The notes beneath the pieces were generated by a model. It did no database searches, was not told the origin of the DNA, and was given only the letters and a program-made list of their open reading frames with translations. Positions 8,570-17,874 of a stretch of DNA of 39,014 nucleotides are shown here, one piece after another. The DNA is taken from IMG/VR virus record IMGVR_UViG_2703718823_000011; one strand, 5' to 3'. Source of the DNA: a virus (lineage: Duplodnaviria > Heunggongvirae > Uroviricota > Caudoviricetes). A program made the position numbers and the translations under genes. Positions within the stretch are counted from its first letter, which is position 1. Each line of letters begins with the position of its first letter.

Positions 8570-8873
8570 GCAAATAACGGACAATATTTCTCTGCTGTTC
8601 TGGTGTTTATATATCACATCGTTTTTCGGCGCATTTGTTATCACCCGGTGGTTATGCCGGAAAATTATCAGCCTTTTTGATAAAAGATATCTGCTTGAGC
8701 TGGCTGCGGATGCGCTTATTCAGCAGGCCATTGTGTTATACAGCGGTGAGTTTTTCTGCCGAATAACAACCAGAGATGGCTGGCACATAATGATTATTCC
8801 GCCAACGCATCATATCCGGTGGAATGAGCCAGAAAAGGCTTTCCATGTCCGTAAAAAGGTAAATACGGTATGA
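8562..8873 (+). CDS. Small membrane protein (one predicted transmembrane helix)
   Basis: 103 aa; hydrophobic stretch ISLLFWCLYITSFFGAFVITRWL; AT-richer than its neighbours. Confidence 0.5.
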   Translation: MDEQITDNISLLFWCLYITSFFGAFVITRWLCRKIISLFDKRYLLELAADALIQQAIVLYSGEFFCRITTRDGWHIMIIPPTHHIRWNEPEKAFHVRKKVNTV

Positions 8874-9379
8874 GAGGAAAACTGATATCTGCCATTCATG
8901 TGGCAAAACGCGAGCTTGCTCTGGATGATGAAACCTATACATCCGCACTGCTGGCAGCCACCGGTAAAGCCAGTTGCCGGGATATGTCACCGGATGAGTT
9001 ATCCCGCGTACTGGATGTTTTCAAAAAACGCGGTTTTAAAGTGCGTCAGAAACCGGTTAACCGGGCCTTAAAGCCGGGTACGGTGACCGCCAAAATTCGC
9101 GCCATCTGGAAAGTGATGCACCGGCAGGGCTTTATTTCTGATGGTGCGGAAACGGCCCTTAACCGCTGGGTGCAATCGCAGACGGCCGCGCAGAACGGCG
9201 GCGAAGGTGTGGCTAACTGGCAGTGGCTGGAGCAACACCCCGAGCTGGCCTCTGATGTGCTGGAGCGTCTCAAACGCTGGCACCGCCGCAAAATGCTGGC
9301 AGCCCTGGATATGTCGGAGCGTGCAGTGATGAGTTATGAGCGCGTTTGCAGGCTGTATGAAAAATCATTCCCCTGTTAA
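8870..9379 (+). CDS. gemA: GemA-like protein (Mu gp16 family)
   Basis: 169 aa; N-terminus ...ISAIHVAKRELALDDETYTSALLAATGKASCRDMS matches the Mu GemA pattern. Confidence 0.8.
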   Translation: MRGKLISAIHVAKRELALDDETYTSALLAATGKASCRDMSPDELSRVLDVFKKRGFKVRQKPVNRALKPGTVTAKIRAIWKVMHRQGFISDGAETALNRWVQSQTAAQNGGEGVANWQWLEQHPELASDVLERLKRWHRRKMLAALDMSERAVMSYERVCRLYEKSFPC

Positions 9380-9382
9380 CCC

Positions 9383-9415
9383 AAATCCCGCCACAGTGCG
9401 GGATTTTATTTTTCC
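9383..9415 (+). terminator. Intrinsic terminator hairpin, copy 1
   Basis: AAATCCCGC-cacagt-GCGGGATTT (9 bp stem) followed by TATTTTTCC; sits 4 nt after the gemA stop and overlaps the stop of the minus-strand gene. Confidence 0.6.
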
Positions 9416-9828
9416 TGAATTTCCGTTTCTGACGGGATTATGCAACCAATTGTTTCATCTGGTTTTTCATATAACGCTATCAATTTAGCCAGCTCATCAG
9501 CATCAAAGTTATAAAATTCAGTTTGTTTAGTTGTCTCCTGATAGTGTTCCCAGCTACGAACAATGACGCTACGAATAACTTTCTTTTCCGGGGGTGTTTG
9601 TTTTGTTGGTTTACGATGTAACCACGTCTGAAACATACTGGCTAATGCCTGCCAGAACCCATCGCATGAAGCTGCGGCCAGAACGATCAATACAATATCG
9701 CTTCCGGCAGCACTAAGTGTTGCTGCTTCTATATTATGATTTGTAAGTTTATACTCTTTCGCCAGATCATTGAGTTCATGGGCCAGTTCTGGTGGGCACG
9801 ATAAAAGCAAAGATGGAGGTTGTTTCAT
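9406..9828 (-). CDS. Hypothetical protein encoded by an opposite-strand moron
   Basis: 140 aa ORF in an AT-rich segment; AAGGAAG ribosome-binding site; candidate sigma70 promoter TTGATC-17-TATGAT on the minus strand around 10032-10060. Confidence 0.6.
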   Translation of the reverse strand: MKQPPSLLLSCPPELAHELNDLAKEYKLTNHNIEAATLSAAGSDIVLIVLAAASCDGFWQALASMFQTWLHRKPTKQTPPEKKVIRSVIVRSWEHYQETTKQTEFYNFDADELAKLIALYEKPDETIGCIIPSETEIQEK

Positions 9829-10063
9829 GGATATCTTCCTTTATTCCGGTGGAACGCTGTCAGGCAGACTGAAATTATTTGTTTTTGCACTGGAGCAAGC
9901 CTGGTGTGCTTTAAGAGTTGGGATAATTGGTTTTCATGTTGATGAAACAACAATAACCCGCAATATGCACAAGCTTTTTGATAAGAAAAACTCCTTCAGG
10001 GTTTGTATTTTTAAAAATAAAAACGATCTTTATCATATAGTTACACCGGAAAATGATCAATAA
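9827..10063 (+). CDS. Possible small ORF (78 aa) divergent from the moron gene
   Basis: ATG at 9827 with GGAGG 7 nt upstream; shares the tetranucleotide CATG (9826-9829) with the minus-strand start; ends 40 nt before hairpin copy 2. May be spurious. Confidence 0.3.
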   Translation: MDIFLYSGGTLSGRLKLFVFALEQAWCALRVGIIGFHVDETTITRNMHKLFDKKNSFRVCIFKNKNDLYHIVTPENDQ

Positions 10064-10102
10064 ATACACAGCTCATTTCGGGTTATGATTTACAGCGCCT
10101 CT

Positions 10103-10135
10103 AAATCCCGCCACAGCGCGGGATTTTTATTTTAA
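10103..10135 (+). terminator. Intrinsic terminator hairpin, copy 2 (near-identical direct repeat of copy 1)
   Basis: AAATCCCGC-cacagc-GCGGGATTT followed by TTATTTTAAA; one mismatch versus the copy at 9383. Confidence 0.55.
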
Positions 10136-10168: not shown

Positions 10169-10591
10169 ATGGCTGAAACACAGATGAGCATGTTTGGTGA
10201 CAGCGAACAGCTGCACGCGCTGATTGACCGTCTGGATGACATTCCTGATGATGAGCTGAAAAAGAACTGGCCCGGCACGCTGCGGGACCTGGTTGATGTG
10301 ATCAGTGCTGAACTGCACCGTCAGGGGATTGAACCTGCTCAGGCAGGAATGCTTGCCCGTAAAGTTGCGGCCGCACAGGCCGGGTACATGGGCGGGCGTG
10401 GTTATTATCTCCCGGTCGGTGAATCCCTTTTCACCGAACTGCGCAATAATGAGATTTTTTCCCGCTGGAGCCAGGGCGAAAAAATTGAAACCCTGCGCCG
10501 CCATTACAGGATGTCAGAAACCCAGATTTATACCGTCATACGCGAACAGCGCCGTCTGCATCTGGCAAGAACGCAACCGCCACTTTTCTGA
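10169..10591 (+). CDS. Mor/C-family transcriptional activator
   Basis: 140 aa; GGAGG ribosome-binding site; C-terminal helix-turn-helix region (GGRGYYLP...ETLRRHYRMSETQIYTVIREQRR) resembles Mu Mor/C; last gene before the lysis cassette. Confidence 0.8.
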   Translation: MAETQMSMFGDSEQLHALIDRLDDIPDDELKKNWPGTLRDLVDVISAELHRQGIEPAQAGMLARKVAAAQAGYMGGRGYYLPVGESLFTELRNNEIFSRWSQGEKIETLRRHYRMSETQIYTVIREQRRLHLARTQPPLF

Positions 10592-10662: not shown

Positions 10663-11163
10663 ATGCCAAAACTCCCCGCACCACTGCGTAAAAAGCTGAT
10701 TGCCCTTGTTCTGGCCGGTGCCGGGACGTTCACGATTGCCACGCATTACACCGGTTACTGGGAAGGGAAAGAAAACTCCACGTATATCGATCCCACCGGT
10801 ACACCAACCATCTGTTACGGCCATACCGGCCCGGATGTGAAACCGGGTATGACCCTGACGGATGAAGAATGCCTGGAACTACTGGAAAAGGACATGAAAT
10901 GGGCCTTTGCGGCCATTGATCGGCGTGTTCAGGTGCCGCTTACCCGTGGTCAGACGGTGGCGCTGGCTTCGTGGATCTTCTGGGCTGGTGAAACGAACTT
11001 CCGCAACTCCACGCTTCTGCGCCTGATCAATGCCGGGCAGATGCCCGCGTCCTGTAAGCAGTACATCCGCTGGATTTATTCGAAGGGGGTGAAACTCCCC
11101 GGTCTTGAGGCCCGCCGTTCGGCGGATGAATGGTTATGTCGCTACGATTTGCCGAAAGTCTGA
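10663..11163 (+). CDS. SAR endolysin (lysozyme-like with N-terminal signal-arrest-release domain)
   Basis: 166 aa; Gly/Ala-rich weakly hydrophobic N-terminus LIALVLAGAGTFTIATHY, then a lysozyme motif (YxDPxGxPTICYGHTG) typical of phage T4/P22-type lysozymes. Confidence 0.85.
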   Translation: MPKLPAPLRKKLIALVLAGAGTFTIATHYTGYWEGKENSTYIDPTGTPTICYGHTGPDVKPGMTLTDEECLELLEKDMKWAFAAIDRRVQVPLTRGQTVALASWIFWAGETNFRNSTLLRLINAGQMPASCKQYIRWIYSKGVKLPGLEARRSADEWLCRYDLPKV

Positions 11164-16478: not shown

Positions 16479-17787
16479 TTTAGGTTATGCCGCTACCCTT
16501 CCCTCAAAAGAGGCGGTGGCATACTTCCGCGCCAAAGGGGCGCATATCAGCTGGAACTGGTTCGAAACAAACGCAGATGTTCATGCCCGTTCATTCACGG
16601 CGGCAAAAGTGGCACGCCTGGACGTACTGACCACACTACAGGCGGAAGTGCAGCGTGCTGTTGATGAGGGGATTTCACAGAAAGCATTTATCCGCACACT
16701 GACACCCCGCCTGCAAAAGCTGGGATGGTGGGGAAAGCAGATTGTGGTGGACAGCGCCGGTAACGCAGAAGAAGTACAACTGGGCAGTCCCCGCCGACTG
16801 GCGCTGATTTACAACGTGAACACCCGCGTGGCTTACAATGCCGGGCGTTACACGCAGATGATGAACAACACGGAGACGCATCCGTTCTGGCAGTATGTGG
16901 CTGTGATGGACAGCCGCACCCGTCCGGCGCATTCCGCCCTTAACGGGCTGGTATTCCGCTATGACGATCCGTTCTGGAATACACACTACCCGCCCAATGG
17001 CTGGAACTGCCGCTGCCGTGTGCGGCCATTGTCTCAGGCCCGTCTGGATGCGATGGGACTCTCTGTTTCATCTGGTCAGGATCATCTCTCCACCCGCAAT
17101 GTTGAGGCTGGCGTGGATAAGCAGACCGGGGAAGTCAGAGAAATGCCGGTGACCACATATTCAGATGGCACCAGAACCATGACACCGGATGTGGGCTGGT
17201 CATATAACCCCGGTTCGGCGGCGTTCGGCACAGACCAGGCGCTGATCCGTAAACTGATCGAGGTGAAAAGCCCGGCGTTACGGGAAATGGTGGTTCAGGA
17301 GATGAACAACAGCCCGGAGCGGCAGCTGGCGTTCCGCATCTGGGCAAAAAACATCATGAAAACCCGGCGAGGCGGTAACGATATCCGCACGCTGGGCTTT
17401 ATGACCGAAAGTATTGCGCAGGCGGTGGAAAGCCGGACGGGAACGCCACCGGCCCGCCTGCTGGCGATGAGCGGTAAAAATGTGCTCCATGCGGACAGCG
17501 TGAAACATCAGAATGACGGTATCGCCCTGACGCCGGAGGATTTCGGGCGATTACCGGCAATGCTGGCCGCGCCTGATGCCGTGCTGTGGGATAATGTCCA
17601 TCAGAATCTGCTTTACATCACTGAAACCCGTGACGGAACGGCAAAGATTGCCGTCAATGCGCCTTATAGTGTGAAACGTCAGCCGGATAAGCTGGATGTG
17701 GTGATTAATGCCTACAGAGTGAGCAGGAATACTCTGATTGATGCTGTTCAGGGAGGTAAGATGGAGATCCTCGAAGGGAAATTGTAA
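16462..17787 (+). CDS. Mu F-like minor head / head morphogenesis protein
   Basis: 441 aa after the portal; NCRCRVRP motif typical of the Mu F / SPP1 gp7 family. Confidence 0.8.
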   Translation: MAQGIDLGYAATLPSKEAVAYFRAKGAHISWNWFETNADVHARSFTAAKVARLDVLTTLQAEVQRAVDEGISQKAFIRTLTPRLQKLGWWGKQIVVDSAGNAEEVQLGSPRRLALIYNVNTRVAYNAGRYTQMMNNTETHPFWQYVAVMDSRTRPAHSALNGLVFRYDDPFWNTHYPPNGWNCRCRVRPLSQARLDAMGLSVSSGQDHLSTRNVEAGVDKQTGEVREMPVTTYSDGTRTMTPDVGWSYNPGSAAFGTDQALIRKLIEVKSPALREMVVQEMNNSPERQLAFRIWAKNIMKTRRGGNDIRTLGFMTESIAQAVESRTGTPPARLLAMSGKNVLHADSVKHQNDGIALTPEDFGRLPAMLAAPDAVLWDNVHQNLLYITETRDGTAKIAVNAPYSVKRQPDKLDVVINAYRVSRNTLIDAVQGGKMEILEGKL

Positions 17788-17874
17788 GTCGGTGGTGGGG
17801 GTCGAACCCACATAAACATCCTTCGGGTGAAGATATCCCTCAGGTGCCGCTTTACCAGTTAAGAGTACACCGAC
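17788..17874 (-). tRNA. tRNA-like element (class II-like length; isotype not assignable)
   Basis: Minus-strand read GTCGGTG...GTGGG-TTCGACC-CCCAC-CACCGAC: perfect 7 bp acceptor stem and 5 bp T-stem with a TTCGA loop; 87 nt. D and anticodon arms do not fold canonically (best anticodon loop CUGAGGG has a poor stem); no encoded CCA. Confidence 0.35.

Follow-up and report, generated by a model that had tools for sequence, protein, structure and literature searches.

The window analysed here, the whole 39,014-nucleotide stretch of DNA held as IMG/VR virus record IMGVR_UViG_2703718823_000011 (Caudoviricetes), is a complete Mu-like prophage that runs from the repressor, ner and the transposase genes A and B through to com/mom. 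The subject of this work is an AT-rich insert of about 720 bp within it, which lies between gemA and a gene for an activator of the Mor/C family and which a first-pass annotation, made from the sequence alone, had described as a single-gene phage moron. We report the anatomy of this insert, its presence and absence in related prophages and the other genes found at the same site. The moron-type reading is upheld in so far as accessory DNA of low GC content, with a gene on the opposite strand and a predicted promoter of its own, separates gemA from a gene of the Mor family; the number of genes, the operon context and the manner of insertion have all been revised.

The insert between gemA and the activator

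The features of the locus, in the coordinates of the window, are as follows.

8870–9379, plus strand: gemA (gp16 family), the left anchor (PF06252, E 1.3e-29); 'gp16 family protein' according to the Prokaryotic Genome Annotation Pipeline (PGAP) in the identical Escherichia coli locus.
9383–9413, plus strand: left hairpin copy with its T-run (stem 9383–9406, loop CACAGT), from folding and the repeat scan.
9406–9828, minus strand: orf140, the type A cargo, an open reading frame (ORF) called for an acidic orphan protein of 140 amino acids (isoelectric point, pI, 5.2).
9827–10063, plus strand: orf78, a basic protein of 78 amino acids (pI 8.7), annotated by PGAP as WP_024192020.1.
9829–10025, minus strand: predicted 5' leader of the orf140 mRNA, about 197 nt, fully antisense to orf78, from the promoter and start-codon positions.
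10013–10063, minus strand: predicted cassette promoter block (−35 TTGATC at 10060–10055, 17-nt spacer, −10 TATGAT at 10037–10032).
10103–10133, plus strand: right hairpin copy with its T-run (stem 10103–10126, loop CACAGC), identical to the single copy of empty sites.
10169–10591, plus strand: Mor/C-family activator, the right anchor (PF08765, E 1e-30).
10663–11163: lysozyme gene directly 3' of the activator, from the annotation of the window.

The fall in base composition and the opposite-strand ORF that had been reported are both confirmed: the GC fraction is 0.34–0.45 inside the insert (39% GC for the interior overall) against 0.52–0.62 in the flanks, and the 140-amino-acid ORF occupies 9406–9828 of the minus strand. 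Its stop codon (9406–9408) falls in the T-run of the left hairpin copy, and a Shine-Dalgarno-like AAGGAAG stands 8 nt 5' of its ATG. A second ORF, orf78, abuts this start on the plus strand; the two genes are head-to-head, with start codons that overlap as CATG, and GGAGG stands 9 nt 5' of the orf78 ATG. With this second ORF, whose counterpart in another cassette type is under purifying selection (see below), the description of a single-gene moron cannot be kept. Both orf78 and the probable location of the insert at an operon boundary had been overlooked in the first-pass annotation.

Two near-identical, terminator-like hairpins do bracket the insert in direct orientation, as had been noted. 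They form direct repeats of 31 nt (28/31 identical, spacing 720 in the repeat scan), each with a 9-bp stem and a 6-nt loop, which fold at −13.2 kcal/mol (left) and −13.4 kcal/mol (right); no shuffled sequence of 200 folded as well, and the folding z score of the left copy is −3.6. The 24-nt hairpin is present in exactly two copies in the window, against 0.00 expected. What is repeated is the stem-loop with its T-run, and the promoter block is single, beside the right copy. A U-rich tract lies 3' of both stems on the plus strand, and the left hairpin is probably the terminator of the early operon. Read on the minus strand the hairpin folds too, and the tail after the stem is there GGGUUAAC, the sole U's being the three that close the stem; because this tail brings no further U's, the hairpin should be a weak terminator for the minus-strand cargo gene.

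The sigma70-like promoter proposed on the minus strand is present at 10060–10032, about 40 nt inside the right hairpin, and, although a scan of the single sequence remains at chance level, it is kept in a second type of cassette, type B. A promoter block of about 50 nt is the sole DNA similarity between the interiors of types A and B (E 2e-9 and 2e-7), and its conservation covers the −35 and −10 hexamers, their 17-nt spacing and the adjacent bases. Two GATC (Dam) sites fall here, one at 10026–10029, just 3' of the −10 hexamer, and one at 10056–10059, in the −35 hexamer; the latter is retained in all type A and type B cassettes, and to judge by these sites it is possible that the cassette promoter is methylation-sensitive. 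A Fur box over the promoter was considered and rejected, as the 11–13 of 19 matches seen by eye are usual for AT-rich DNA. Nothing convincing came of a search for operator similarity between the cassette and the c-ner region.

Empty sites, other cargos and breakpoints

Among 5,426 complete E. coli genomes the gemA-activator segment was found in 232 records, and 231 genomes carry the prophage. The insert of the window is present in 4 of the 232 records at 99.9% identity or more, and strains M1 and M3 (2/232) hold an insert of similar size and other sequence. In all other rows listed the flanks are about 951–1014 nt apart, the size expected without the 720-nt unit. We count six records as occupied and about 226 of the 232 as empty, since no more than six best places lie in the bands of at least 95% identity. 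The sequenced empty sites contain exactly one hairpin at the gemA-activator junction, identical to the right copy of the window, in a gap of 76–77 nt, just as the first-pass annotation had anticipated for relatives without the insert. Since the hairpin 31-mer is present in exactly the 232 records that carry the prophage, it is private to this locus and is no genome-wide repeat. The 689-nt interior, for its part, matches only the four insert-carrying E. coli genomes, with every copy examined located at this junction.

Outside this set, the more divergent Salmonella- and Citrobacter-type group is occupied in 7 of 9 viral contigs; scans of genome contigs yielded one locus only, an empty site from Citrobacter. 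A DNA search of the phage collection gave only two Shiga-toxin (Stx) phage records with an inserted Mu-like element, both empty at the site. Where the site is occupied, its contents fall into at least four cargo types and one insertion sequence (IS).

Type A (the window, L001, L005, L006, L077–L079): 140-amino-acid ORF, minus strand, with a 78-amino-acid ORF, plus strand.
Type B (E. coli M1 and M3, L016 and the Salmonella-type L035, L036 and L066): gene for 111–113 amino acids, minus strand, with a gene for 63–64 amino acids, plus strand.
Type C (L067, L073, L074): 143-amino-acid protein, minus strand, with a signal peptide; phrog_15648.
Type D (L069, L071, L072): 106-amino-acid protein, minus strand, with a signal peptide.
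IS (L012, IMG/VR UViG_646311913_000007, 1497–2962): IS4-family element in the hairpin, with a 445-amino-acid DDE transposase.

The cargo genes are all on the minus strand. All cargo types have an intact left hairpin, with the cargo stop codon within a few nucleotides of it. The E. coli phages also have the whole right copy, whereas that of the Salmonella/Citrobacter-type phages is partial or remodelled and folds weakly. The same two hairpins are found around different cargo, in M1/M3 and in other phages, an outcome that the first-pass annotation had itself listed as refuting its reading, and because of this the two-hairpin scaffold is a reusable hotspot, not the footprint left by insertion of the orf140 cargo.

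The breakpoints of exchange can be read from pairwise comparisons. Outside the cassette there is almost no difference between the window and M3 (GemA 99.4%), and they diverge exactly at the inner edges of both hairpins; the two have in common the variant of the left copy that has a T in the loop and three preceding C's. Type A is also found in a second backbone, L005, in which GemA is 88% identical and the cassette 97–98%, and the break in identity again lies at the left hairpin. In Salmonella-type phages with type B, the sequence 3' of the left hairpin corresponds to the E. coli-type spacer (20/23; z 7.7; 0/2000 shuffles), and in type D a stretch of about 40 nt in the left flank is similar to the spacer native to that phage (z 3.9; 6/2000 shuffles), from which it follows that the duplicated unit is the intergenic region, taken as the hairpin with a variable length of spacer. 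The 3' ends of the cargo ORFs extend into the duplicated copy. Types C and D have in common a right end of 12 nt as well as CACACAG, a derived variant of the right copy; together with the promoter block shared by A and B, this suggests that the two-copy scaffold predates the present cargos, which have been replaced within it. The picture first drawn, of a module inserted into a terminator and duplicating it, accordingly needs amendment, for the length duplicated is not constant (31 nt in the window, about 17 or 45–60 nt with other types of cargo), the spacer can be included and the scaffold so framed has been reused by several cargos. Such variable lengths fit homologous or Campbell-type recombination at a conserved patch.

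A different agent was considered, namely a non-autonomous transposable element or an insertion by a transposase or site-specific recombinase, with the hairpin as its target-site duplication or as an attC-like site; we find this scarcely credible. The hairpin has indeed been targeted by at least one transposase, that of the IS4-family element in L012, and the prophage does encode a serine recombinase. The IS in L012, however, split the hairpin stem and made a target duplication of 11 bp, GCCACAGCGCG, and duplications that range from 17 to about 60 nt are far longer and more variable than transposase target duplications and so argue against a transposase footprint. The repeat scan found no terminal inverted repeats at the cassette ends, the interior has the restricted distribution described above, an integrase is lacking and no site holds more than one cassette. 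An integron attC-like site was rejected on these last two points and on the short, perfect stem, and a Gin-type invertase was rejected as the agent since the recombinase gene adjoins the tail-fibre genes, like the Gin invertase of Mu.

The direction of the events is a separate matter. It could be held that the cassette is ancestral to the clade and that empty sites arose by deletion between the direct hairpin copies, with no insertion into a terminator at all, and direct repeats of 24–31 nt around 0.5–0.7 kb are classic deletion substrates. A scaffold older than its cargos, by the shared promoter block and left-copy variant of A and B and the shared right end of C and D, and the high occupancy of the Salmonella/Citrobacter-like group would both suit this account. 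Yet the interior has 37–42% GC against 52–62% in the flanks, as is typical of imported DNA, cargos C and D have no relationship with A/B or with one another, 6/232 records of the E. coli group are occupied, and the near invariance of type A argues for its recent spread. We therefore judge an ancestral cassette unlikely, while observing that gain and loss are not mutually exclusive.

Selection on the cargo genes and their relatives

The type A ORFs can be compared between two alleles, 3% apart, in which orf140 is intact across at least nine independent loci. Between the window and the L005 allele, orf140 has 6 synonymous and 7 non-synonymous changes (dN/dS, the ratio of non-synonymous to synonymous rates, 0.31) and orf78 has 3 and 1. 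With both ORFs pooled, 8 of 17 changes are non-synonymous against an expected fraction of 0.79 (P 0.004; P 0.04 for orf140 alone); non-synonymous changes are depleted. The small ORF of type B, of 63–64 amino acids and in the same place and orientation as orf78, has a dN/dS of 0.07–0.15 with synonymous divergence to saturation and on this account is a real gene; purifying selection acts on both ORFs of type B. Between the orf140 protein and the cargo family of type B there is colinear similarity (z 4.6–5.1, reached by 2–3 of 2000 shuffles), and types A and B probably, though not provably, diverged from a single two-gene module whose promoter has been conserved.

Such an arrangement recalls an antisense-coupled toxin/antidote or abortive-infection pair, in which orf78 would be harmful and would be silenced in the lysogen by the orf140 leader and perhaps neutralised by the orf140 protein. 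In both A and B the genes are head-to-head with the small ORF wholly inside the leader of the other gene, one partner is basic (pI 8.7–10.4) and the other acidic (pI 4.8–5.7), and both type B ORFs are, as just described, under selection. In the middle of the small proteins there is also a hydrophobic stretch that comes close to the Kyte-Doolittle threshold for membrane segments (1.5–1.9). This hydrophobicity is borderline, however, as it is in the core of orf78, and the type A stretch contains charged residues; the searches described next brought up no similarity to a known toxin, antitoxin or defence family, and cargos C and D occupy the same site without a small ORF. We consider a pair of this kind distinctly improbable.

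Relatives of orf140 were sought in 5.8 billion proteins by a word-indexed search and in 1.84 billion representatives by full HMMER, and each returned only near-identical copies; a eukaryotic SEA-repeat protein was judged a spurious match. The earlier statement that the 140-amino-acid protein has no recognisable domain was confirmed, with no usable match in Pfam, PADLOC, PHROG, NCBIfam or the PDB. The type C cargo matches only phrog_15648, a PHROG family of unknown function, and none of the PADLOC-DB 2.0 defence profiles matched orf140, orf78 or the type B, C and D cargos at E ≤ 1. An Rfam scan of the region produced only sub-threshold, chance matches, and the cassette has no similarity to Mu E18, E19 or gp20.

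A cassette at a probable operon boundary

The gene to the right of the cassette had been labelled mor. Its product shares 40% identity with Mu C (112 bits), against 28% with Mu Mor (58 bits), and the gene lies directly 5' of the lysozyme gene, as C does in Mu, so that the label is better replaced. A separate C gene does not follow the activator; the lysozyme gene does. The clade of prophages thus appears to possess a single Mor/C-type activator, situated 3' of a strong terminator. In Mu the order is gemA-mor, a terminator-like hairpin, small ORFs and C; early transcription stops 3' of mor, and the activators Mor and C work one after the other. Because the activator here is C-like and is the sole Mor/C-type gene, the hairpin after gemA is most simply the terminator of the early operon, and by this gene order the cassette most likely lies between transcription units, which would explain why insertions are tolerated there. 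It had been placed within the early operon, a position that now seems mistaken. No promoter is evident in the 42 nt between the right hairpin and the ATG of the activator.

We propose that the insert is a moron-type accessory cassette in a hotspot that is set by the terminator hairpin, between gemA and the single Mor/C-type activator, in a clade of Mu-like prophages of the Enterobacteriaceae, and on balance we believe this to be correct. While the early promoter is repressed, as it is in the lysogen, leftward transcription of orf140 would start near 10025 from the gene's own promoter. After induction, rightward read-through of the left hairpin would allow orf78 to be expressed and would supply RNA antisense to orf140, such that the two mutually antisense transcripts would have their genes expressed in opposite states. 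The duplicated hairpin, with the downstream spacer in other types, would provide the patch of homology for cassette exchange between related phages; recombination between its two copies would remove the cassette and leave the empty site with a single hairpin, and the route of entry may have been a Campbell-type circle, as has been proposed for the PeSL cassettes discussed below. The most likely role of the cargo would be a fitness function expressed by the prophage, for example exclusion of, or defence against, other phages; we infer this role from the placement of the cassette.

Several results count against this proposal or parts of it. Two strong plus-strand terminators in series before an essential activator would be costly, and the model leaves this cost unexplained. 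The predicted promoter matches the consensus at 9 of 12 positions, and the single-sequence scan returned 2 sites where 2.5 were expected. The promoter scan found no plus-strand promoter for orf78, for which reason its expression would require read-through of a strong terminator. The protein homology between A and B is weak (hhalign P 0.03–0.05, judged not significant), and the similarity of their small ORFs vanishes without the first seven residues, which overlie the ribosome-binding site of orf140. The coding evidence in type A is weak, as the two alleles differ by no more than 17 substitutions. In the gut-metagenome copy L079 a G-run (near 9589) has an extra nucleotide that frameshifts orf140, possibly a sign of decay, and an in-frame deletion of 25 amino acids is found in a variant of orf140 from an ENA metagenome contig (P0002, 115 amino acids). 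The sequence searches that failed for orf140 gave no usable match for orf78 or for the type B and D cargos, and the AlphaFold2 models are too poor to be used (pLDDT, the predicted local score, 51 from the single sequence and 39.5 from the combined A and B alignment).

Some of these points would also suit a reading in which orf140 is non-functional and the insert is junk or decaying DNA, or acts only as antisense RNA or as a spacer between terminators: no confident fold was obtained for this orphan protein, a frameshift is present in one copy and a loss of 25 amino acids in another, and the dN/dS of orf140 is only moderately below 1. Against it stand the intact frame in two alleles and at least nine loci, a good ribosome-binding site, the depletion of non-synonymous changes in orf140 alone and more strongly with orf78, the colinear similarity to a type B family that is clearly under selection, and the low likelihood that 140 codons would stay open by chance in DNA of 39% GC. 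This reading strikes us as very unlikely.

Two observations on the variants may be added. A 13-nt direct repeat inside orf140 (9521–9533 and 9596–9608, 75 nt apart) coincides with the 25-amino-acid deletion, which looks like a slipped-strand deletion. In L077 a 1-nt insertion in an A-run (near 10049) alters the last residues of orf78; this and the insertion in L079 could be assembly errors or decay.

To return to the proposed accessory cassette, a bolder version of it would make the cargo an induction-sensing two-gene system, a small membrane-active protein and its acidic partner under mutual antisense control, that serves in exclusion or abortive infection, with the hairpin as a dedicated site for mini-circle recombination. 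We give this version little chance. Were it true, the balance of the two genes would flip on derepression of the early operon or when an infecting phage perturbs transcription, and the cassettes would hop as mini-circles between Mu-like phages.

Elsewhere in the prophage and its relatives a few further features were seen. In E. coli STEC2018-607 (L075; NZ_CP075697.1, 2932052–2974103) an identical prophage splits the cellulose synthase gene bcsA into two partial pseudogene pieces; E. coli CP55_Sichuan carries the identical prophage as well. In the identical E. coli locus PGAP marks a 'tRNA-OTHER' at about 17787–17874 of the window (minus strand), between the head-morphogenesis and virion-morphogenesis genes; ARAGORN finds no tRNA anywhere in the window. 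PGAP likewise records a pseudogene, a gp436-family head-tail gene with an internal stop, at about 21072–21491, and marks a tail protein fragment near the invertase as incomplete in the identical prophage; the prophage may not be fully functional. In other Mu-like relatives opposite-strand genes lie just 5' of gemA (L037:1926–2381, L004:1164–1403 and L036:4445–4855), and encode a 151-amino-acid protein with a weak DUF2513/phrog_585 match in Citrobacter and hypothetical proteins of 79 and 136 amino acids elsewhere. These genes may mark a further accessory hotspot, one gene leftward and upstream of gemA.

The cassette may be set beside several known systems. The morons of lambdoid phages of the HK97/HK022 type consist of a promoter, a gene and a terminator between genes of related phages (PMC4378225). 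Like these, the present insert is extra DNA between genes that are adjacent in relatives, with a lower GC content, its own predicted sigma70-type promoter and a stem-loop after the gene, and by analogy its expression from a repressed prophage is plausible. Unlike them it has two ORFs, placed head-to-head; the stem-loop that follows the gene duplicates the terminator of the phage itself and should be weak in the direction of the cargo; and the site has been reused by at least four types of cargo.

By analogy the shuffling mediated by PeSL (promoter-early stem-loop) units in T4-type phages is the closest published mechanism. In RB49 an ORFan lies between two stem-loop cassettes where phi1 has a single cassette, and mini-circles of excision were detected (PMC2839356); recombination between copies accounts for insertions, deletions and replacements at intergenic sites where they do no harm (Arbiol et al. 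2010, PMC2839356), and a circular intermediate with one copy is the proposed vector (PMC2839356). The locus described here has the same layout, an ORFan between two stem-loop copies with a single copy in relatives. It differs in its repeated unit, for PeSL units comprise about 100 bp of promoter and stem-loop, at about 50 per genome, in lytic phages (PMC2839356), whereas here a terminator of 24–31 nt without a promoter is present in two copies, private to one locus of a temperate transposable phage.

Conserved flanks around a short variable region, with unrelated and mostly hypothetical genes whose occupancy varies among relatives, are also found in the accessory and defence hotspots of P2 and P4 prophages (PMC9519451; preprint 10.1101/2021.01.21.427644) and in the regions of genomic plasticity of Pseudomonas Mu-like phages, for which no common flanking sequence was found (PMC4378225). 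The present hotspot departs from both in that no cargo matches a known defence family, the cargos are of 0.4–0.7 kb and the boundaries are formed by a duplicated terminator.

Two transposable phages offer a comparison at the level of the genes. Fc02 carries the opposite-strand, overlapping exclusion genes olg1 and gene 10, whose exclusion activity has been shown (PMC9936078), and these resemble the genes described here as small opposite-strand overlapping genes of the early region, with one gene of the Fc02 pair active in the lysogen while the other is expressed as part of the lytic operon. The Fc02 pair, however, lies beside repressor/ner and overlaps within the coding sequences, whereas here a leader overlaps a coding sequence, and the two have no sequence similarity. 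The Mu genes E18, E19 and gp20 are, like the cassette, small accessory ORFs between the end of the early operon and a C-type activator; unlike it they are all on the plus strand, and Mu has a separate Mor and a middle promoter.

In the literature that we searched, no description of a hotspot at the gemA/activator junction was found. The present work locates one in Mu-like prophages often found in pathogenic E. coli (the prophage is carried by 231 of 5,426 complete E. coli genomes), as well as in relatives of the Salmonella and Citrobacter type, and it adds four small protein families which, because of their placement, opposite strand and, in A and B, their own promoter block, are candidates for traits expressed by the lysogen. 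Two points bear on annotation: in this clade the gene called 'mor' is C-like, and a small, conserved ORF had escaped notice. The turnover of morons has been called "mysterious" (PMC4378225), and the legible boundaries of this site lead to a testable model in which recombination accounts for the gain, exchange and loss of morons.

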